NCBI GenBank assembly: GCA_041662985.1
Contig: JBAZRJ010000005.1
Coordinates: 1-61,566 of the forward strand
Source: Clostridia bacterium
GTDB taxonomy: Bacteria > Bacillota > Clostridia > Acetivibrionales > JBAZRJ01
DNA: 61,566 nt
Reading direction: 5' to 3'
The position numbers were made by a program, and so were the translations under genes. Below the pieces are notes generated by a model that did not search any database, had not been told where the DNA came from, and saw only the letters and a program-made list of their open reading frames with translations. Of the stretch, positions 2,754 to 61,566 are shown in pieces; the first letter of the stretch is position 1; each line of letters begins with the position of its first letter.

Positions 2754-3756
2754 TATTTTCACCCTCCATACTAAAAATTTGTTCTTCAATTTGTTCCAGA
2801 ACAGAAGATTTAGCGAAATTTGCAGCGTTTATTACCGCAAATTTAATTGTTTTAGCTTTAGAACTGCCATGACTCTTTATTACTTTTCCTTTGACTCCGA
2901 GTAGCGGAACACCGCCATACTCCTCATAATTAACCAGCTTCGCAAACTTTTTCAATTTTTTCTTAACAATTAATGCTGCAAACTTCGGTAAAATGCCGCC
3001 TCCAAAAATATCTTTAATCGAATCTACCAGAAACTTGCCCAAGCCTTCATAAAGTTTTAAAAGAGCATTTCCCACAAACCCATCACATACAAAAACATCA
3101 ACATCACCCTCAGTAATCTGCCTTGCTTCTACATTTCCAACAAAATTGATATTTGCCTTTTTCATAAGTGCATAGGAGTCGCGTACAAGTTCCGTCCCCT
3201 TATTTTCTTCAGTTCCATTGCTGATTATACCAACTTTCGGTTGATTTATACCAAAAAGTTCTTTCATGTATATTGAACCCATTACCCCAAACTGAAGAAA
3301 GTTAATCGGCCTGCAAACTGTGTTTGCTCCGCCATCTATCAAAAGCGCCATGCCTTTTTTTGACGGAGCTAACGGGGCCAACGCCGGCCTGTCAACATTT
3401 GCAATCCGGCCGAGAATAAACAGACCGCCTGCCATTAGTGCACCACTGTTGCCGGCAGAAAGAAAAACATCTCCTTTTTTTTCTTTAAGCATGTTAAAGC
3501 CGACAACCATTGAAGAATCCTTTTTATATCGGATTGCCTTCACAGGTGCATCATCAATTGAAATGACTTCTGTTGTATGTTTTATTGTTAGTCTGTCGCT
3601 CTTGAATTGTTCCCTCATTAGAATTTCATCTATTTTAGACCGGTCACCTATTAAAATGACACTGAAACCGTCCATTTCTTTAATCGCACCAATACATCCC
3701 TTTACTATTTCTTCCGGGGCGTTATCTCCACCCATAGCATCTAAAAGAACTCTCAA
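2737..3756 (-). CDS. plsX: phosphate:acyl-ACP acyltransferase
   Basis: 339 aa, MRVLLDAMGGDNAP N-terminus typical of PlsX; sits between fapR and fabH. Confidence 0.95.
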   Translation of the reverse strand: MRVLLDAMGGDNAPEEIVKGCIGAIKEMDGFSVILIGDRSKIDEILMREQFKSDRLTIKHTTEVISIDDAPVKAIRYKKDSSMVVGFNMLKEKKGDVFLSAGNSGALMAGGLFILGRIANVDRPALAPLAPSKKGMALLIDGGANTVCRPINFLQFGVMGSIYMKELFGINQPKVGIISNGTEENKGTELVRDSYALMKKANINFVGNVEARQITEGDVDVFVCDGFVGNALLKLYEGLGKFLVDSIKDIFGGGILPKFAALIVKKKLKKFAKLVNYEEYGGVPLLGVKGKVIKSHGSSKAKTIKFAVINAANFAKSSVLEQIEEQIFSMEGENIEQKS

Positions 3757-31815: not shown

Positions 31816-31880
31816 TGTTCACACCTCCAAAACCTGCTGCCATCGGTCTTCTTTTAACATATCCTTATTTACTGTAAATA

Positions 31881-31913
31881 TCAAAAAAACTTCTCGCCGT
31901 AAGGCAAGAAGTT
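31881..31913 (-). terminator. pyr leader attenuator terminator
   Basis: The minus strand reads AACTTCTTGCC-TTAC-GGCGAGAAGTT followed by TTTTTTGA. It lies about 45 nt downstream of the PyrR box. Confidence 0.8.
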
Positions 31914-31955
31914 AATATTATTTGAAATAATATAAAGACATTTTATTAACTGCTA

Positions 31956-31975
31956 CCTTTAGGCCTCTCTGGACT
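31956..31975 (-). promoter_or_regulatory. PyrR-binding loop (anti-antiterminator) in the pyr leader
   Basis: The minus strand reads AGTCCAGAGAGGCCTAAAGG. This matches the conserved ARUCCAGAGAGGYU PyrR recognition motif and is closed by the stem CCTTTA/TAAAGG. Confidence 0.85.
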
Positions 31976-32006
31976 TTATTAAAGGTTTTCTTATTCAATT
32001 TGTATG

Positions 32007-41728: not shown

Positions 41729-41744
41729 TCTACATTTTAAATAT

Positions 41745-42090
41745 GACTAGGTCTGTAAGCCGGGTTCTGTATCTGACGGTCATCTATCTAGGCGACGCAT
41801 CTCTGTATCGCTCAAGCCACCTAATGGGACTGGCGGGCCGCCTGCATCCCTGTGCGGTGTTGCTCCGGATGGGGTTTTCAAAGCCGGACAGTTACCTGGC
41901 CGCTGGTGAGCTCTTACCTCGCCTTTCCACCCTTACACGCCTATGTTTCCATAGATATGCGGTAATTTTCTATGCACTTTCCTTAAAGTTGCCTTCACCG
42001 GGAGTTACCCGGCACCCTTGCCCTATGGAGCCCGGACTTTCCTCATGTAAGGCCTTTCGGCACTTTACACGCGACCATCTGACCTACTCA
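41745..42090 (-). ncRNA. rnpB: RNase P RNA, bacterial type A
   Basis: The reverse strand contains GAGGAAAGTCCGGGCTCCATAGGGCAAGGGTGCCGGGTAAC, GGTAAGAGCTCACCAG, CCGGAGCAA and the 3' ACAGAACCCGGCTTACAGACC. A GC-rich island with no credible ORF. Confidence 0.95.
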
Positions 42091-45490: not shown

Positions 45491-45567
45491 TGGTGGGCCT
45501 TCAGGGACTCGAACCCCGGACCAACCGGTTATGAGCCGGTTGCTCTAACCAACTGAGCTAAAGGCCC
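45491..45567 (-). tRNA. tRNA with CAT anticodon, most likely tRNA-Ile2 (lysidine) rather than elongator Met
   Basis: The reverse strand reads GGGCCTTTAGCTCAGTTGGTTAGAGCAACCGGCTCATAACCGGTTGGTCCGGGGTTCGAGTCCCTGAAGGCCCACCA. It folds as a cloverleaf with an encoded CCA. C4-G69/C5-G68 and the TTGGTC variable loop resemble ileX-type tRNAs. Confidence 0.9.
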
Positions 45568-45572
45568 CCATT

Positions 45573-45648
45573 TGGCTCCTCAAGTAGGACTCGAACCTAC
45601 GACCCTGCGGTTAACAGCCGCATGCTCTACCAACTGAGCTATTGAGGA
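45573..45648 (-). tRNA. tRNA-Asn (GTT)
   Basis: The reverse strand reads TCCTCAATAGCTCAGTTGGTAGAGCATGCGGCTGTTAACCGCAGGGTCGTAGGTTCGAGTCCTACTTGAGGAGCCA. Confidence 0.95.
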
Positions 45649-47198: not shown

Positions 47199-48992
47199 TT
47201 ATATATTTTTTCTTTTTATAATCAGAGAATTTAGTTCCTCTGTCAATTTTTCCACTTCACTGTTCTTAAGTTCGACGCCACTGCTTAAGATAAGCAATAT
47301 TTCATTTTTTCTTTTGTCCATTATATATACCACCATTCCTTTTATTATATCCATTGCGGCTTTGTAATTACTCTCGCAATTGCATTCTTCCTGTATTATT
47401 TTAGCATATTCCCCTGCTTCTTTATCATCCAAAAGTCCCAGTAACTCAGCAGAAACTATTCCTCTGTCGCTGTCAATTCTGTCAAACACAATTTCCGCTA
47501 TTTTACGATCATTCTCGTCAATAAAATCTTCAATCTTAATGCGATCCTTGATCTTTTTATAGATGCTGTTATCAATGCAAATTAATGAGATGAGCATACG
47601 TTCATTATGAATTATTTCTTTTGCCTGCGAATTTTCCTTGCCTGTCGCTTCAGATGCAATCGTTTCTGCTTTCTCTGTCATTGCTGTTTTAAAATTCGTC
47701 TTCGGCCTTAATCTCTTATATATTTCTGAATAAATCGCATCCTCAGTTATGCTGTATTGTTTTGCTAATGTTTTTATGTACATCTCACGTTCCATGCTGT
47801 TATCTATTTTTGAAAGCATCTCGGCAACTTTATTCAGGAACTTTATTTTCCCGTCGGTAGTCTCAGTGTCTGTCTTGCTTTTCAGTATTTTGACCTTATA
47901 TTCAAGCAGTGATATGGAATTGTTAACAAGGTTTATAAATTCATCGGGACCATTTTTACGGACAAAATCGTCAGGATCCTTTCCTTCAGGTATAACAAGC
48001 ACTTTCACATTACAACCTATTTGATTCAATAAGTCCAATCCCCGCATTGTAGCTGTTTGACCTGCCGTATCCGCATCATATGAGATGATAACTTCTTCCG
48101 CATACTTTTTCAGCAGTCGCCCCTGGCTTTCCGTAAGCGCTGTCCCCAATGATGCCACGACATTTCTTACACCGCTTTTATTCAGTGAAATCACATCCAT
48201 ATAACCTTCAACTATAACAATTCGTGTATCTCCTGAATTTTTTGCTAAATTCAACGCATATAAGTTTTTTCCTTTGTTGTATACCGGAGTTTCTGGAGAA
48301 TTCATATACTTTGGCAATGATTCATCTGTCACGCGTCCGCCAAAAGCAATTACATTGCCTCTTACATCAAATATCGGGAATATTATACGGCCTCTGAATC
48401 TGTCGTAAAAACCGCCATTTTTATTTTTCAATACTAATCCGGACTTTTCAATTATTTCACTTTTAAAACCTTTTTCGACAAGAAATTTATATAATTGGTC
48501 CCATTCTGTTCCCGAAAAACCGATTCCGAATCTTTTTATCGTTCCTTCGTCCAAACCTCTTCCCGTCAGATAATTCCTAATGCTGCTGTTTTTGTCTGAT
48601 GTTAGATTTGAATAATAGAAACGCGCTGCTTCAGTATTAATTTTTAATAATTCCTGTCTCAGCTTTGCCTTCTCTCTTCCTTCTTTGTCATCCGATTCCG
48701 GTAAATCGATCTTTGCACGGTCTGCAAGAAGTTTTACTGCTTCAATAAAGTCCAGATTTTCAGTCAACATAATGAATTGGATTACATTTCCGCCCTTCCC
48801 GCAACCGAAACAATTGAATATTTGCTTAGTCTCAGACACACAAAAAGACGGTGTTTTTTCCTTGTGAAACGGACATAATCCGAAATTATTCGAACCTTTT
48901 TTGTCAAGCTTGATGTATTCGGAAACGACATCGACGATATCGTTTCTCATTCTGATTTCCTCTATTAATTCATCGGGATAATAATTGTACAT
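47199..48992 (-). CDS. dnaG: DNA primase
   Basis: Zinc ribbon [13 protein letters not shown]...CFGCGKGGN, and TOPRIM ([17 protein letters not shown]). Confidence 0.96.
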
Positions 48993-51957: not shown

Positions 51958-52084
51958 ATATTTTAATAATCAACTTTTTTACTCAATCCGTCTCCGGCCA
52001 AAAGGCTCAAAGCAGTTAAAAATATTCTTTTTTTAATCAATATGTACAGCTCATTTATGATGCTGTCAGCCTCATTTTTTAACT

Positions 52085-53077
52085 CTATCCTCTTGTTGCT
52101 TTTCTTGCTGCTAGTCTCTGCTTCTCCTGTGACTCTTTCCACAGAATCCACAACGGGCTTGCAATAAATATTGATGAATAACAACCGCTGGAAACACCTA
52201 TGATCAGCGGAAGTGTAAACTCCTGAATCGATCTGATACCGTAAATTCTTGCAAAAACATAAACCGTCGTTACACAAATCAAAACCGTTACAACAGTACT
52301 AATAGATCTGTTCAGGGTTTCTACTATACTTCTGTTTACAAGTTCGCCAATCGGCATTTTACGCAACTGGCTGCTGTTTTCTCTTATTCTGTCATAGATT
52401 ATAATGGTATCATTCATCGAATACCCTATAACCGTCAATATGGCGGCTATCAAGGCCTCATTTACGACAATGTTGAAGAATAGATAAACAGACAGCATTA
52501 ATAATATATCATGTATCAACGCCAATATTGCCATTACCCCTGCGGACAATCCCGACATAATCTTAAACCTATACCATATGTAAAGAATGATTAAAATTGA
52601 TGCAAAAAATATCGCAAGCAACCCATTATTGAGAAGTTCTTTTCCTATGAAAGGCTCATAGCTGTTCTGGCTGAATATCGCATTGCTGCTGTTTAATTCA
52701 AATGCTTTAATGATAGCATTTTCAACATTCTGTCTTTCAGTTTGTGAAAGAGCGTCTTGACTGGCTATCCCTAAACTCATTAATACAACTTTTAATTTTC
52801 CGTTTTTAGGATCCGGAATAATTTCCTTCTGAATTGTAACATTTTTCTTAGTTATATCAACTACTATCTTTTCAGCCTTTGCTGTATCAAGCTTATACTC
52901 ATTGGCTGTTTTTTCGTCTACGCCTTTATCAGTCATTTGCATTTCAATTATCGTTCCGCCCTTGAATTGTATGTCAAGGTTAAATCCTCCGCGGATGAAA
53001 AACGTTACAGCTCCTGCTAAAATAATTATTGCCGACAAGGCAAAGAAGTAATATTTCTTCCCCATTAAATCAATCAT
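52085..53077 (-). CDS. secF: protein translocase subunit SecF
   Basis: 330 aa, 6-TM SecD/F fold, ATGA overlap with secD. Confidence 0.93.
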   Translation of the reverse strand: MIDLMGKKYYFFALSAIIILAGAVTFFIRGGFNLDIQFKGGTIIEMQMTDKGVDEKTANEYKLDTAKAEKIVVDITKKNVTIQKEIIPDPKNGKLKVVLMSLGIASQDALSQTERQNVENAIIKAFELNSSNAIFSQNSYEPFIGKELLNNGLLAIFFASILIILYIWYRFKIMSGLSAGVMAILALIHDILLMLSVYLFFNIVVNEALIAAILTVIGYSMNDTIIIYDRIRENSSQLRKMPIGELVNRSIVETLNRSISTVVTVLICVTTVYVFARIYGIRSIQEFTLPLIIGVSSGCYSSIFIASPLWILWKESQEKQRLAARKATRG

Positions 53078-54405
53078 GCCTTCGCCTCCTTTGTGTCATT
53101 TTCTTTATCCTTTGGTGTGCTTATCCCGTACAGCCAATGATGCTTGGCTATGTTTACATTAACAACTGATTTCAGCATTATCCTCGAAACCACAACTGCT
53201 GTCAGGAAGCTTAGTGCAACACCAAGACCAAGTGTAAGGGCAAAGGATTTTATTGGACCTGTGCCAAACCCATATAATACGACTGCTGAAATAAGTGTTG
53301 TCATATTCGCATCAAGAACTGCCGTAAATGCTTTTTTGAAACCCACATCTACTGCTGCTCTGAGAGTCTTGCCATTTCTTAATTCCTCTTTTATTCTGGC
53401 AAAAATTATGATGTTTGCGTCAACACCCATACCTATCGTAAGAATTATACCCGCAATACCCGGAAGGGTCACCGTAATTCCCGTCATTGAAATAAACAGC
53501 AACTGAAGTACTGTATGTGCTAATAAGGCTATGTTTGCAAGCATACCCGGAAGTCTGTACATTATAAGCATGAAGATCCACACAAGAACAAGCGCGAACA
53601 ATGCTGCCGTTACACTTACATTCAAAGAGCTTTCTCCCAATGTAGGGCTTATTGTGCTTATTTGTTTTGTTTCCAGTTTAAAAGGCAATGAACCGGATTT
53701 AATTGTAGCCGCAAGATCACCTGCTGTTGCTGCTGTATAATTCCCGGTTATGGAAGCAACACCATCAGTTATGTGAGCCTCAACCGTCGGAGCAGCTTCC
53801 ATATGATCGTCCATGAATATAGCGATAGGTTTATTCATAAGCCTTGATGTAGCATCAGCAAACGCTTTTGTTCCTGACGGTTTCAAAGTCAATGCCACAC
53901 CAATCTTGCCCGAATCAGGTTCCGTCTGAACCTTTGCATCCTGGACATCTTTACCGTAAAGAATTATTTTCCCTGTAGGAAGATAATCACCGTTTGCATC
54001 TTTCTTATTTTCATCGACTTCCTGAAAAGTTAAAAGTGCAGTTTTTACTGCATTAGTAAGTGTTTTCACAGGGTCTTTGGTTTTATCTCCATATGGTATT
54101 TGCACTACTAAATATCCATTGGTTGTATTTACTGCCACGACTCTGTCATATATTTGCTGGTAATCGAGTCTTTTTTCGATAATTATTTTTGCATTTTCAA
54201 GATCTGCCCTTGAAGCGGTTACTCCGGTTTTTGTCACCGCATATAGACGCGCATCGACACCACCCTTAATATCAATACCTAATTTAATGTTGTTAACACT
54301 TCCGTATATCTTGTCCCCGCCAAAAGTTCCGGAAAGACATATCCAAGTTAATACTGCAATTGATATAATAACCAGGACGAATTTAAGCCCATTGTTACCC
54401 TTCAT
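53074..54405 (-). CDS. secD: protein translocase subunit SecD
   Basis: 443 aa; LGIDIKGG periplasmic-type domain followed by a 5-TM C-terminus. Confidence 0.93.
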   Translation of the reverse strand: MKGNNGLKFVLVIISIAVLTWICLSGTFGGDKIYGSVNNIKLGIDIKGGVDARLYAVTKTGVTASRADLENAKIIIEKRLDYQQIYDRVVAVNTTNGYLVVQIPYGDKTKDPVKTLTNAVKTALLTFQEVDENKKDANGDYLPTGKIILYGKDVQDAKVQTEPDSGKIGVALTLKPSGTKAFADATSRLMNKPIAIFMDDHMEAAPTVEAHITDGVASITGNYTAATAGDLAATIKSGSLPFKLETKQISTISPTLGESSLNVSVTAALFALVLVWIFMLIMYRLPGMLANIALLAHTVLQLLFISMTGITVTLPGIAGIILTIGMGVDANIIIFARIKEELRNGKTLRAAVDVGFKKAFTAVLDANMTTLISAVVLYGFGTGPIKSFALTLGLGVALSFLTAVVVSRIMLKSVVNVNIAKHHWLYGISTPKDKENDTKEAKA

Positions 54406-54482
54406 CTGAAAAAATCCCCCTTCTTTTATCTGTCTTACGATATTATATAACTATAGAATTTGTGCGTCAATACATAGAAATA

Positions 54483-54986
54483 CTACAAATTATAGTTTTT
54501 TACCAATTCCAGGTACTCCGATATTCCCATTTTTATATTTTTTATATCGTCTTCCGTTAATTCTCTTTTAATTTTTGCAGGTGCTCCCATGACAAGAACT
54601 CCGTCCCCAATCACGCTATACGGCGGTATTACAGAGCCGGCAGCGACAATCGAGTTCCTGCCTATCTGAGCTCCGTCCAATATAATTGCCCCCATTCCAA
54701 TTAAAGTTCCGTCGCCGATTGAACAGCTGTGAAGAATCGCTCCATGACCGACAGTTACATTTTTCCCGACAACTGTCGAAATATCCGGAACACAGTGAAG
54801 TATGCAGCCATCTTGTATGTTGGAGTTTTCTCCAACAATTATGGCACCCATATCGCCTCTCAAAACCGCGTTAAACCAAATACTCACATTTTTTTCGAGT
54901 TTCACATCCCCGATAATTTGGGCTCCATCGGCTACAAAACAACTATTGTCAATTTGCGGTTTAACCTTGTTGTAATCAGCAATCAT
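54483..54986 (-). CDS. gamma-carbonic-anhydrase-family left-handed beta-helix protein (YrdA/PaaY-like)
   Basis: 167 aa of hexapeptide repeats with His residues at the gamma-CA positions (ILHC...GHGAILH). It starts 3 nt after the scfB stop. Confidence 0.85.
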   Translation of the reverse strand: MIADYNKVKPQIDNSCFVADGAQIIGDVKLEKNVSIWFNAVLRGDMGAIIVGENSNIQDGCILHCVPDISTVVGKNVTVGHGAILHSCSIGDGTLIGMGAIILDGAQIGRNSIVAAGSVIPPYSVIGDGVLVMGAPAKIKRELTEDDIKNIKMGISEYLELVKNYNL

Positions 54987-54989
54987 TTT

Positions 54990-56375
54990 CTAATCCTCCT
55001 TATACTCCTGAGTTTTAATCCAGAGAGCACATTCTGCTCGTTTCTTTTCTATTTCACAACCAATTTTATACGGTTTCATTAAATCTTTGTTGAATTGATA
55101 AGCATTTGCGGAACAACCTCCGCTGCAATAGAATTTTGCCCAGCATTTGCTGCATTCTTCCTTAGTGTAAACATTCGGCTTTATAAATAAGTCCTGTATC
55201 TCTTTATTAAGATAGTTTTCACCCTTTTTACCATTTTTCTGCAAAATTTCATTTACATTTCCCATTTTAAAATCTTCATCGCCGACAAATTGGTGACACG
55301 GATAAATATCGCCTTCAGGCGTAATTGACAGATATTCGCTTCCCGAACCGCATCCTCTTATGCGTTTTGCTGCGCATGGTCCCTGCTCCAAATCAATCAT
55401 GAAATGGAAAAAATTAAACCATTTTTTTCCCTTTCGCCTCTTAACATATTCTACCGCCAGTTTTTCATATTCATCATAAAGCTTCTGCAGGTCTTCTTCT
55501 CTAATGTCATAGCCTGTTCCCTTCGCGCAAACAACAGGTTCGACGGAGATTTGCCTGAATCCCAGGTTCGCAAGGTGTAGCACATCGTCGGAAAAGTCCA
55601 GGTTTTCTCGCGTAAAAGTTCCTCTGACGTAATATTTATCTTGCTTCCGTATTTCCGCCATTCTTTTTATTTTAGGAAGAATGTTTTTATATGTGCCGGT
55701 TCCGTCAATGTGAACTCTCATTTTGTCGTTTACCGATTCTCTTCCGTCAATGCTGAGAACAACATTTACCATGTTTTCATTTATATATTTCATGTTCTCT
55801 TCATTTAGAAGCACAGCGTTCGTCGTTATTGTAAATCTGAAATTTTTATTGTTTGCTTTTTCATTTTTTCGGGCATACTCGATAATTTCCTTTACTGTTT
55901 CAAAGTTAAGAAGCGGTTCTCCCCCGAAGAAATCAACTTCAAGATTCTTTCTATCCCCTGATAATTTAATCAGTAAATCAATTGATTTTTTGCCGATTTC
56001 AGGACTCATTAAAAGCCTTTCTCCGCCGAATCCGCCCTTTGAAGCAAAACAGTAGCTGCACCTTAGATTGCAGTCATGTGCAATATTGAGGCAAAGCGCT
56101 TTAACATTCATCTTTGGTTCCCAGTCCTTTAAATACGGAAGGAAATCATCGTCCGAAAACAACAACCCGGTCTTTTCAAGTTCAGCAATTTCCGAAATTG
56201 CTTCTTCAATTTGTTCTTTATCGTATTTTTTAGAAAGTCTGTCATAAAGTTCTTCTTCAGACGCTCTTTTATAATACTTTACAACATCATATGATATATC
56301 ATCAAACTCATGTACAGCGCCGCTGTTTACGTCCAAAACAATGTTCGTTCCATTCAGTTTAAAACTGTGTATCAT
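54990..56375 (-). CDS. scfB: SCIFF radical SAM/SPASM peptide maturase
   Basis: 461 aa; CNLRCSYC radical SAM triad and a C-terminal SPASM Cys set (CAAKRIRGCGSG...YPCHQ...CSKCWAKFYCSGGC). About 110 nt downstream of the SCIFF precursor. Confidence 0.9.
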   Translation of the reverse strand: MIHSFKLNGTNIVLDVNSGAVHEFDDISYDVVKYYKRASEEELYDRLSKKYDKEQIEEAISEIAELEKTGLLFSDDDFLPYLKDWEPKMNVKALCLNIAHDCNLRCSYCFASKGGFGGERLLMSPEIGKKSIDLLIKLSGDRKNLEVDFFGGEPLLNFETVKEIIEYARKNEKANNKNFRFTITTNAVLLNEENMKYINENMVNVVLSIDGRESVNDKMRVHIDGTGTYKNILPKIKRMAEIRKQDKYYVRGTFTRENLDFSDDVLHLANLGFRQISVEPVVCAKGTGYDIREEDLQKLYDEYEKLAVEYVKRRKGKKWFNFFHFMIDLEQGPCAAKRIRGCGSGSEYLSITPEGDIYPCHQFVGDEDFKMGNVNEILQKNGKKGENYLNKEIQDLFIKPNVYTKEECSKCWAKFYCSGGCSANAYQFNKDLMKPYKIGCEIEKKRAECALWIKTQEYKED

Positions 56376-56403
56376 TAAATTTTCCCCTTATTTTCATTTG
56401 GAA

Positions 56404-56448
56404 TAAAAAAAGTGAAAAGTGAAATATTGCTCCACCCTTCACTTAAAT
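56404..56448 (-). terminator. weak hairpin plus T7 run between the SCIFF precursor and the maturase (possible partial terminator)
   Basis: The minus strand reads AAGTGAA...TTCACTT(TTCACT)TTTTTTT. The stem is AT-rich and the 3' arm is duplicated. Confidence 0.3.
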
Positions 56449-56487
56449 CTTATTTGACCTTGATATTACTGACTCAAATCCAAATCC

Positions 56488-56628
56488 CTATCTTTTTTCA
56501 CAGTTTTGGTTTGCAACAGTGCAAGAAGTTTTGCATGCTGATTGGCACGATGTCTGGCATTCGCCGCAACCCGCTTTTTTTAAATTGTCCTTCAAACTTT
56601 TTTTTGTGATGGTTTTAATATGTTTCAT
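56488..56628 (-). CDS. scfA: six-cysteine RiPP precursor SCIFF (ranthipeptide class), 46 aa
   Basis: Missed by the ORF track because it is under 60 aa. GGAGGATTTTTAG-ATG, translation MKHIKTITKKSLKDNLKKAGCGECQTSCQSACKTSCTVANQNCEKR. The GCGECQTSCQSACKTSCTV core is the SCIFF signature. Confidence 0.92.
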   Translation of the reverse strand: MKHIKTITKKSLKDNLKKAGCGECQTSCQSACKTSCTVANQNCEKR

Positions 56629-56678
56629 CTAAAAATCCTCCCGGATTTATTTTATATTACTTAAGTTATACATCTTGC

Positions 56679-57041
56679 TTACTTCTTAACTTCCTTTATT
56701 TCGTTTATTTCATTTTCATTCTGAATGTCCATAATCGCCCATCTTTTAACCATTATCTTTGTTCCGTCGATACCTGATTCGATAGTTAAATCATCTTCCT
56801 TGATATTTACGACTTTGCCTACGATTCCGCCCTTTGTTGTAACAACTGTTCCGTCTTTAATAGTGTTTAACATTTCATCTCTTTTTTTAACGTTCTTTTT
56901 TTGTGAGCGTGTCATAAGAATAAAGTAAACAACTATACCAATAATTGCCACATAAAAAATCAAACTCGATCCGGCTCCCGGATCCTGTGAAGCTGCTTGT
57001 GTTGCCGGTGGCGTAGTTGCCAATAATGCTGATAATAACAT
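56679..57041 (-). CDS. yajC: preprotein translocase subunit YajC
   Basis: One TM helix followed by KGGIVGKVVNIKEDDLTIE, a typical YajC C-terminus. Downstream of tgt. Confidence 0.88.
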   Translation of the reverse strand: MLLSALLATTPPATQAASQDPGAGSSLIFYVAIIGIVVYFILMTRSQKKNVKKRDEMLNTIKDGTVVTTKGGIVGKVVNIKEDDLTIESGIDGTKIMVKRWAIMDIQNENEINEIKEVKK

Positions 57042-57095
57042 AATAGTCCTCCCAAATATCTTTCAACTTATTTTATTAACGTTTATTTTAACGCT

Positions 57096-58322
<1,227 letters not shown>

Positions 58323-58354: not shown

Positions 58355-59428
58355 TCATTCAATAAACATCGAATCCCCGAAACTAAAAAATCTGTACCTC
58401 TCATCAATTGCCTTTTTATAGGCATTCAGAACATTTTCTCTGCCTGCGAATGCGCTTACGAGCATTATTAAAGTCGATTCGGGCAAATGAAAATTTGTAA
58501 TCAACGCATCAATCGCTTTGAACTTATATCCCGGATAAATAAAAATATCCGTATTCCCCTCAAACGGTTTAACAGTGCCGTTTTCGTCAGCCACAGATTC
58601 AAGAACCCTGCAGCTCGTCGTACCCACGGCTATTATTCTTCCCGAATTCTTTCTCGTTGAATTTATCAAATCACAGGTTTCCTTCGAAATCGTAAAATAC
58701 TCGGAATGCATTTTATGCCCGGCCACATCGTCAACCTTCACAGGTCTGAATGTACCAAGTCCCACATGCAATGTCAAATATGCGATATTGACACCTTTGT
58801 TTTTTATCTGCCGCAATAACTCGTTTGTGAAATGCAAACCCGCCGTAGGAGCTGCTGCGGACCCTTTATATTTTGAGTAAACGGTTTGATAGCGTTCCTT
58901 GTCGTTTAGTTTTTTCGTAATATACGGCGGAAGCGGCATGGTTCCGATTCGATCCAGGATTTCTTCAAATATTCCTTCGTATTTAAATTGAACCAATCTG
59001 ATTCCATCGTCCAAAATCTCCAATATTTCGGCTTTCAGCACTTCATTCCCTGAATTTGGAGAACCGTCCTCTAAATCTAAGTTTGGAGAATCGTCCCCGA
59101 AAACAAAAATCGAACCCGGTTTTGCTCTTCTCCCGGGCTTCAAAATAACTTCCCATTTGTCAGCATCGCGCTTTTTCAAAAGCACAAATTCAATTTTCCC
59201 GCCCGTGTCCCCACGTTTGCCGATCAGTCTTGCAGGAATAACCCTTGTATCGTTTAAAACAAGGCAATCTTCCCTCTTCAAACAACTTAATAAATCTAAA
59301 AAATGCTTATGTTCAACATTTCCCGAATCTCTTTTCAACACAAGCATACGAGACATCTGCCTGTTTGGAATCGGCTCCTGTGCGATTAATTCCTTTGGTA
59401 AATCATAATAAAAATCACTTACTTTCAT
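58355..59428 (-). CDS. queA: S-adenosylmethionine:tRNA ribosyltransferase-isomerase
   Basis: [19 protein letters not shown] ... [11 protein letters not shown]. Confidence 0.95.
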
Positions 59429-59446: not shown

Positions 59447-61099
59447 TTATTGAATTTCGGTACCCGGAAAATAATGTTTTAGAATCTGAGTACACGTATA
59501 CCCGTGCCTTGCAAATCCCATAGCACCTTCCTGGCTCATTCCGACTCCGTGTCCCCAGCCTCTTCCGGTAAAAATATATGCGCCCGGTGTCAGAGAAACA
59601 CTTTTCTTCGTGTTGGCACCGTTAATTAATGTAACAACATTGTTTACACCTGTCAATATCTGAGTTCCTTTTGAGGTCACAACTGTCATACCTTTGAAAT
59701 CCCTGTTTTCAACTTTTCCGCCATTGGCCCTGAAATAAGTTTTATCCGGCGATGAAATAGTATACCACTGGCTTTTTAAACCAAAGAATGTTCTGCATCT
59801 TTCAATCGTAAAGGTTTTACTGCCTTTAGTCCCTTTTACGACGACTTCTGTCACTCTGCCTGAAGGAGCTTTTTTTGTTGCGGTTACGGCAGTCACATCG
59901 CCTATATTATATCCCCAGTCGCTTAGTCTCCCCTTTATATAAGCAGGCGTTCTTTCCTGAACCCATTCGGTACCGGGAGCTTCGTAAGGATCGTCTACAC
60001 TTATCAAATAAGGACATGAATTGCCCCATACATTCCTCACATCTTCGGTTTTCCCACCGCTCGAATTGTAATAATTTATTTCCGCAGCGCTGCCCTTGTA
60101 CGTTATAATTTTCCCGATTGTTTCGTCAACAGCCCTATTTGTTGACGCTTCTTCATTGTCATATCCCAAATACATCTGGCAGTCAACTGTCGAACAAAGA
60201 TCAAAACCCAGTGAGCTATGCTTTTTCAGGCAATTATATGTATATGTTCCTGCACATATCGCCTGAGCTTTCAACGCCTCAAGCTTTGAATTTGAAAGCA
60301 TTTCAGACGGGACAACTCCATACAGATATAATTGAGGCTTAATTACATTGACCAATGTCATATCGCTGTTTGTAAGCCTTTTTACCTCGAGATTTCCTCT
60401 GAAATGCTGATTGTTCAATTTGAACATCAACGGTGAATTCGCAGTGTTTGGATGAATTTGAAAAGCGCCTGAAGATTTGTCATACATAAATAGTGTATTA
60501 CCGCTTAACGCAATTACAATCCTGGTCGGGTCCGAATTTACAATCGTACATAATAAAGACGGCACCTTTGGAGCAATAACAGAATTCATGTTATATAGAG
60601 TATCATTTTGATTAAGATAATTGCCCGTCCATACCCGCCATCCATCGTTATATACTGGATATGCGGCGATTCCTTTCTCCTTCAAAACAGGAACCTGCGC
60701 TCTGGCGTTTGTATAGCTTGTATATTTATCCCCTATCTGTACATGATACGGCCCCATCTTTGTCCCCGAAGGAATTTTACCTGATGGACTGTATTCAGTA
60801 AATGTCGAATCATTCAAAACAAAAAAACCGTCTTTTCTTATTGTAACCTTATTGCTGTATTTGTATTTGTATAAAACTCCGAATTTGGAGCTGGCATAAT
60901 AACCTAAATCAAGCCCTTTGGGAGCGCTGATATCAAAGCACGATGTCTGGGAATGCCCTTCAGGCGGCGCGCCTTTGTAATAAAGACCGATTCTTACCGT
61001 GCTCGGTAATGTAACTGCTGCGTGAGTAATAGTTGCTGTCAGAAAAACAACAAATAATGAAAAGAAAAAAGAAGATATAAGCTTAAAATTAATTTTCAT
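59447..61099 (-). CDS. SpoIID/LytB-domain protein with signal peptide and long N-terminal extension
   Basis: 550 aa. The signal-like N-terminus is MKINFKLISSFFFSLFVVFLTATITHA. The C-terminal part carries the SpoIID signatures (LKAQAICAGTY..., GRGWGHGVGMSQEGAMGFA). Confidence 0.85.
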   Translation of the reverse strand: MKINFKLISSFFFSLFVVFLTATITHAAVTLPSTVRIGLYYKGAPPEGHSQTSCFDISAPKGLDLGYYASSKFGVLYKYKYSNKVTIRKDGFFVLNDSTFTEYSPSGKIPSGTKMGPYHVQIGDKYTSYTNARAQVPVLKEKGIAAYPVYNDGWRVWTGNYLNQNDTLYNMNSVIAPKVPSLLCTIVNSDPTRIVIALSGNTLFMYDKSSGAFQIHPNTANSPLMFKLNNQHFRGNLEVKRLTNSDMTLVNVIKPQLYLYGVVPSEMLSNSKLEALKAQAICAGTYTYNCLKKHSSLGFDLCSTVDCQMYLGYDNEEASTNRAVDETIGKIITYKGSAAEINYYNSSGGKTEDVRNVWGNSCPYLISVDDPYEAPGTEWVQERTPAYIKGRLSDWGYNIGDVTAVTATKKAPSGRVTEVVVKGTKGSKTFTIERCRTFFGLKSQWYTISSPDKTYFRANGGKVENRDFKGMTVVTSKGTQILTGVNNVVTLINGANTKKSVSLTPGAYIFTGRGWGHGVGMSQEGAMGFARHGYTCTQILKHYFPGTEIQ

Positions 61100-61424: not shown

Positions 61425-61446
61425 ATATTAAATTAATAATGAGTTT

Positions 61447-61566
61447 GGTAGAGGTGCGTTTTTTATCAGTATATCTGACTAGAACATGGGAGTTCGATTA
61501 AGCAGATAGAAAGGGAAAAACGCCGAAGGGTATATTATCCCGTTAAATATCCCCTGGTTATTCGGC
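61447..61566 (+). ncRNA. lysine riboswitch (L-box), 3' part cut by window edge
   Basis: GGTAGAGGTGCG...CAGTA...GAAAGGGAAAAACGCCGAAGGG...CCCCTGG parallels the B. subtilis lysC leader (AGAGGUGCG...GAGUA...GAAAGGGGAGCGUCGCCGAAG...CUGG). Confidence 0.8.

Follow-up and report, generated by a model that had tools for sequence, protein, structure and literature searches.

A SCIFF ranthipeptide precursor and maturase pair, scfA-scfB, with a recurrent terminator-like hairpin in its spacer, between yajC and secDF in a Clostridia bacterium

The SCIFF family of peptides was reportedly first defined by Haft and Basu in 2011, and the system is already known: descriptions go back to that year, a crystal structure exists and NCBI models name it automatically. 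One of the closest described counterparts of the locus studied here is CteA/CteB (thermocellin) from Clostridium (Acetivibrio) thermocellum, represented by PDB entries 5WGG and 5WHY. The CteA leader binds the RRE of CteB as a beta-strand, and the open iron of auxiliary cluster I can take a substrate cysteine as a ligand (PMC6231123, PMC8326336). Another, Tte1186a/Tte1186 from Caldanaerobacter subterraneus, belongs to the same family and was the first SCIFF to be characterised in vitro. According to PMC8326336 and PMC8172795, Tte1186 and CteB each form one thioether in vitro, Cys32-Thr37 (Bruender 2016, Grove 2017), whereas co-expression in E. coli placed the Cys32 sulfur on the gamma-carbon of Thr34 (Hudson et al. 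2019), after which study the SCIFFs were moved from the sactipeptides to the ranthipeptides. The literature is divided over whether Thr37 or Thr34 is the acceptor, and does not agree on how many cross-links the natural product carries (PMC8326336).

The only members with reported phenotypes (PMC8102284, PMC8326336) are those of C. beijerinckii and C. ljungdahlii, which consist of the same precursor and radical SAM pair and come from a different clostridial order from the organism studied here. Disruption of SCIFF in these two species affected quorum sensing and the transcriptome, and in C. beijerinckii altered the expression of sporulation genes and agr, from which a role in quorum sensing was proposed (Chen et al. 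2020). In a 2026 preprint, ranthipeptide clusters again rank with the best-conserved BGCs across clostridial orders, and no species has more than one. Further comparisons are offered by PapA/PapB (freyrasin) and QhpD, whose homologous radical SAM/SPASM enzymes form thioethers to non-alpha (beta or gamma) carbons; the substrate motif of PapA consists of Cys-X3-Asp repeats and the substrate of QhpD is a protein subunit, both unlike the precursor described below. The sactipeptide synthases AlbA and SkfB are, like the maturase described below, radical SAM thioether-forming RiPP enzymes with an N-terminal RRE, but they make S-C(alpha) links, and SkfB has a Twitch domain in place of SPASM.

Within the window, by which we mean the whole 61,566-nucleotide stretch of Clostridia bacterium DNA that was analysed, we identified a precursor gene, scfA, and a maturase gene, scfB, on the minus strand. 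We consider it very probable that they form the two-gene SCIFF ranthipeptide system that is standard in Clostridia, with a proposed mechanism and a proposed leaky terminator. All of the defining features of the ScfA and ScfB families that can be tested in sequence were found in this pair, which is, as read from the DNA, a textbook, ordinary and already known SCIFF system; the initial annotation had likewise presented the family as described and the system as not new, and both the curated models and the crystal structure already exist.

The scfA gene (56488..56628, minus strand) is an open reading frame of 46 codons, found in the sequence and in the ORF list, that starts with ATG at 56628 and stops with TAG at 56488-56490. 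Its product, MKHIKTITKKSLKDNLKKAGCGECQTSCQSACKTSCTVANQNCEKR, has 46 aa, below the usual 60-aa threshold for listing ORFs, and SCIFF peptides are small enough to be overlooked easily, as the family's author remarks (PMC5300114). The frame, its start and its translation had been proposed in the initial annotation, and the peptide quoted there agrees letter for letter with ours, as do the positions of its six cysteines (21, 24, 28, 32, 36 and 43). A strong Shine-Dalgarno sequence had also been claimed, and a ribosome-binding site, GGGAGG, indeed lies at 56637..56642 (minus strand), 8 nt before the ATG, although the upper boundary of 56640 then given clips this site by 2 nt.

Running the profile search that had been suggested placed the peptide in the SCIFF family, as had been supposed. 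TIGR03973 matched ScfA with 84.9 bits against a cutoff of 50 (E = 2.6e-24), covering model positions 1-43 of 43, and the Pfam SCIFF model PF13165 matched with 86.5 bits against a cutoff of 27 (E = 1.1e-24). The size of the peptide and its six-cysteine core fit the family description of about 45 residues and a conserved core CGECQTSCQSACKTSC...C. By analogy with CteA, the leader would span approximately residues 1-18 and the core approximately residues 19-46. The ScfA leader, MKHIKTITKKSLKDNLKKAGC, aligns with CteA residues 1-21, MKHIKILNGSTLKDSLKKGGC, of PDB 5WGG chain B; the two peptides share the leader pattern MKHIK..LKD.LKK.GC and the core residues Cys32, Thr34 and Thr37, and differ at six leader residues within positions 1-21 of the co-crystallised peptide. 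A six-frame translation of the whole window revealed no second peptide ORF with the cysteine spacing of scfA, and no other SCIFF-like or Cys-rich precursor was found in the window, the sole other Cys-cluster pattern being a stray plus-strand frame at 47643-47687.

The second gene, scfB (54990..56375, minus strand), encodes a 461-aa radical SAM/SPASM SCIFF maturase and is preceded by a ribosome-binding site, AAGGGGA, at 56383..56389 (minus strand), 8 nt before its ATG. It matched TIGR03974, the model for the 'thioether cross-link-forming SCIFF peptide maturase', with 672.7 bits against a cutoff of 425. ScfB is 66% identical to CteB over the full length (BLASTP), and a search of solved structures recovered CteB (5WGG/5WHY) with E = 1e-210 over residues 1-457, in keeping with the earlier assignment of the enzyme to the CteB type of SCIFF maturase. 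The curated HMMs, together with the crystal structure of an enzyme 66% identical to ScfB, settle the identity of ScfA and ScfB.

The two enzymes share an RRE, radical SAM and SPASM architecture. Pfam domains Radical_SAM, Fer4_12 and SPASM were identified in ScfB, and the CxxxCxxC motif and SPASM region ascribed to it earlier were both recovered: the radical SAM motif CX3CX(aromatic)C is present as C102-N-L-R-C106-S-Y-C109 (PF04055, 61.5 bits), and PF13186 (SPASM) matched with 28.1 bits against a cutoff of 21.5. Cys334, 342, 360, 408, 411, 417, 421, 440 and 449 each align with a cysteine of CteB, all of whose aligned cluster cysteines are kept, and the SPASM domain thus retains the cysteines predicted to bind two auxiliary [4Fe-4S] clusters. 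Over residues 1-90 ScfB shows a gap-free alignment with the part of CteB that contains the RRE, its N-terminus; the Pfam PqqD match there is weak by itself, at 18.5 bits where the gathering score is 23.4. We noted a single 10-residue insertion in ScfB (ILQKNGKKGE, approximately residues 377-386), absent from CteB, which falls within the SPASM region, after the Cys360 group and before the Cys408 group.

We investigated the conservation of the pair across 80 related loci with ScfB homologues of 55-68% identity, obtained by a scan of species-representative genomes. These closest loci all come from genomes or MAGs of Clostridia or Bacillota; among those with a genus name, Acetivibrio, Pseudobacteroides and Herbivorax are the nearest. 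In 77 of the 80, scfB is immediately preceded by an scfA homologue in the same orientation. The ScfA core GCGECQTSCQSACKTSCTVANQxC was common to 76 related loci apart from one Val-to-Ile change, so that the core across these loci and the window reads GCGECQTSCQSACKTSCT[V/I]ANQxC, with x at residue 42. The sequences were gathered by a regular expression for the core, which introduces a small bias, as 76 of the 77 copies detected by tblastn were caught.

All 77 scfA nucleotide sequences (76 loci and the window) were distinct. Across core codons 20-43 the mean minor-allele fraction was 0.45 at the third codon position and 0.02 at the first and second, and core codon differences relative to the window comprised 924 synonymous and 76 non-synonymous changes. 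The core is therefore kept while third positions vary freely, indicating that the minus-strand frame of scfA is, on this codon pattern, under strong purifying (coding) selection.

These data bear directly on whether scfA is a gene at all. Short ORFs are common by chance, and two plus-strand ORFs (56412-56609 and 56519-56632) overlap scfA, so that the 46-codon frame could in principle be fortuitous, or the true feature a plus-strand ORF or a non-coding RNA; profile E-values of about 1e-24 for the minus-strand peptide, and variation dominated by third positions of the minus-strand frame across 77 sequences, make such a reading scarcely conceivable. The plus-strand ORFs (65 aa and 37 aa) were rejected as genes, having no Pfam match at E <= 1. 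An Rfam search of 56250-57150 likewise gave no match at E <= 1, and none at gathering thresholds in or near scfA. That the radical SAM enzyme might instead be an orphan paralogue, or a maturase of the PapB, QhpD or CcpM type with a different substrate, is suggested by the homology of these families, all of which match ScfB: 585.9 bits for NF040492, the 'not_ScfB' exception model for orphan paralogues, 281.9 bits for the PapB model and 267.2 bits for the QhpD-type model. Against this, each of these scores lies under its cutoff (855, 340 and 453, respectively), and TIGR03974 is the only radical SAM maturase model to exceed its curated cutoff, the others falling far below theirs. The cognate ScfA is moreover encoded 112 nt upstream on the same strand, inside the 500 bp that the family's author takes as the limit for calling a radical SAM gene near scfA a ScfB, a rule that held in 234 of 234 cases (PMC5300114), and the window is devoid of other Cys-rich precursor-like ORFs. 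We accordingly regard a different maturase identity as very improbable, and retain the assignment of the enzyme as ScfB.

By analogy with CteB/CteA and Tte1186/Tte1186a, we infer the following mechanism for ScfB. The Lys-rich ScfA leader (MKHIKTITKKSLKDNLKK) would bind to the N-terminal RRE domain in the form of a beta-strand, and the [4Fe-4S] cluster of the CX3CXYC motif would, with SAM, generate a 5'-deoxyadenosyl radical that abstracts a hydrogen from a core threonine. Aided by the two SPASM auxiliary clusters, the enzyme would then bond the Cys32 sulfur to a core threonine, Thr37 or Thr34, giving a non-alpha thioether with a loss of 2 Da per link. The residues of the Cys32/Thr37 pair used by CteB, to which the initial annotation drew attention, are present in ScfA, as they are in Tte1186a, with which we compare it through the literature; the link itself rests on in vitro work, and in E. 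coli co-expression it was Cys32-Thr34 that was obtained. ScfA holds both Thr34 and Thr37 as well as the donor Cys32, and because all three residues are present either acceptor outcome is possible for this peptide.

The spacer between scfA and scfB contains a hairpin followed by a T-run that resembles an intrinsic terminator (56403..56444, minus strand), identified by a terminator scan, by folding and by comparison with relatives. The scan matched 56444..56410, with a 15-pair stem and a 5-nt loop followed by the T-run. Folding of the 115-nt spacer region gave -23.5 kcal/mol (z = -2.36) and the terminator-like hairpin as the centroid structure; the hairpin by itself gave -15.9 kcal/mol. Defining a spacer hairpin as one with dG <= -10 kcal/mol that abuts at least 4 T, we found a sense-strand hairpin and T-run in 53 of 72 related scfA-scfB spacers and none by that definition in the remaining 19. 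The corresponding count was 8.1 +/- 1.7 in dinucleotide-shuffled controls, never above 13, and 21 for the antisense strand. Nine close relatives have a similar hairpin, in which 4 of 16 pairs show compensatory changes; this covariation is supportive only, as these relatives were picked because they fold alike.

The T-run ends only about 34 nt short of the scfB ATG, and a search of the spacer for sigma-70-like promoters matching at 9 or more of 12 positions yielded none. Since this distance leaves no room for a promoter and none was found, scfB would be transcribed by read-through, with the hairpin and T-run acting as a leaky terminator and the precursor mRNA being more abundant than that of the maturase. 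We infer a role as attenuator for the hairpin from its position and recurrence alone. A hairpin between the precursor and maturase genes, with read-through, is a familiar layout in other RiPP operons.

Upstream of scfA, all on the minus strand, lie genes for a 550-aa protein (59447-61099), queA (58355-59428) and tgt (57096-58313), the latter two identified by profile matches, and yajC (56679..57041; TIGR00739, 59.2 bits against a cutoff of 44.2, and PF02699). Only 50 nt (56629-56678) separate the yajC stop from the scfA ATG, and the sequence directly before scfA showed no sigma-70-like promoter at the threshold of 9 of 12 matches; scfA may be co-transcribed with yajC. The 550-aa protein has a SpoIID/LytB domain (225.3 bits) and scored 146.8 against a cutoff of 234.75 for the SpoIID equivalog, so that SpoIID/LytB-domain protein is a better name for it than SpoIID. 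As listed, the tgt ORF has a TTG start and exceeds the family model by 28 residues, its match to the model beginning at residue 29; the true start is probably an internal ATG at residue 24 (approximately 58244), which gives a better fit to homologues.

Downstream, and again on the minus strand, scfB is followed after 3 nt by a 167-aa hexapeptide-repeat gene resembling gamma-carbonic anhydrase, PaaY and CaiE (54483..54986), which matched Pfam Hexapep and, with 192.6 bits and thus under the cutoff of 250, NF050158. Of 76 related loci, 15 have a homologue of this gene in the corresponding place after scfB; the gene may share a transcript with scfB and is a candidate member of the system. Next come secD (53074-54405; TIGR01129, 323.7 bits) and secF (52085-53077; TIGR00966, 254.5 bits). 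In the gap before secD we identified a promoter-like site, TTGACG-17-TATAAT (54470..54442, minus strand), sigma-70-like with 11 of 12 matches, and because of this strong site the scfA-scfB unit, with or without the gamma-carbonic-anhydrase-like gene, probably ends before secD, with secDF transcribed separately.

The order queA-tgt-yajC-secDF is an ancient housekeeping arrangement, and the embedding of scfAB within it is typical: secD lies downstream of scfB in 56 of the 70 related loci with enough downstream sequence, and yajC lies upstream in at least 18 of 71, as counted by a single-query tblastn with a short protein. In 27 of 80 relatives, scfA is preceded on its own strand by a gene for a membrane protein of the TIGR04086 family, in most cases as an immediate neighbour; in one related locus, L005, it lies at 3168-3608 between yajC and scfA (97.8 bits). 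No homologue of this protein was found in the 61.5-kb window by tblastn or by a custom HMM built from homologues in the related loci, with every ORF of 50 aa or more searched. The cassette also contains neither a protease nor an exporter, as had been noted at the outset, its neighbours being queA, tgt and yajC upstream and the gamma-carbonic-anhydrase-like gene, secD and secF downstream.

These surroundings raise the question of what the peptide does. The initial annotation called its role unknown, which is partly dated given the quorum-sensing effects reported by Chen et al. 2020 (cited in PMC8102284 and PMC8326336). Those phenotypes speak against a product that acts inside the cell, for instance in binding metal or Fe-S clusters, in redox chemistry or in connection with Sec, rather than as a secreted quorum-sensing signal. 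Such an intracellular product would be in line with the missing leader protease and exporter, with a core that hardly varies among diverse Clostridia, a pattern atypical of signals or bacteriocins, and with the persistent position of the pair between yajC and secDF; the wide spread of SCIFFs, which argues against an antimicrobial role (PMC8326336), points the same way. The synteny may, on the other side, reflect a mere inherited insertion site in an ancient gene order, and the TIGR04086 membrane protein that accompanies scfA in 27 of the 80 relatives could serve export. Taking both sides together, we judge intracellular action unlikely, if still worth keeping in view. A more specific form of this idea holds that SCIFF is a housekeeping, cell-associated peptide, with its dosage set by the leaky terminator and its function tied to the Sec accessory genes yajC and secDF, which have kept flanking it across clostridial orders, and not a dedicated secreted signal. 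It draws on the near-invariant core, the missing protease and exporter, and the loss of the TIGR04086 protein here, and we hold it to be distinctly improbable.

The standard two-gene reading of scfA-scfB has consequences for annotation: scfA is a real, conserved 46-aa gene under ORF-length thresholds, and should be annotated. The locus is a clean example of a minimal SCIFF cassette, in which yajC abuts scfA and the TIGR04086 membrane protein is missing, and the recurring scfA-scfB hairpin constitutes a testable regulatory detail. Its practical value is small, and the recurrent terminator-like hairpin and the minimal cassette lacking a TIGR04086 neighbour are the only points that are mildly new.

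We additionally identified several RNA features elsewhere in the window. An Rfam 'pan motif' lies directly downstream of secF (51984-52069, minus strand; 53.6 bits against a gathering score of 36.2), and a lysine riboswitch aptamer (61441-61566, plus strand; 67.7 bits) is cut by the 3' end of the window. A PyrR binding site at 31880-31989 (minus strand) scored 55.9 against a gathering score of 54, and is thus barely above it. Finally, the minus strand carries a bacterial RNase P class A RNA (41740-42090; 261 bits) and adjacent genes for tRNA-Met(CAT) and tRNA-Asn(GTT) (45491-45648).
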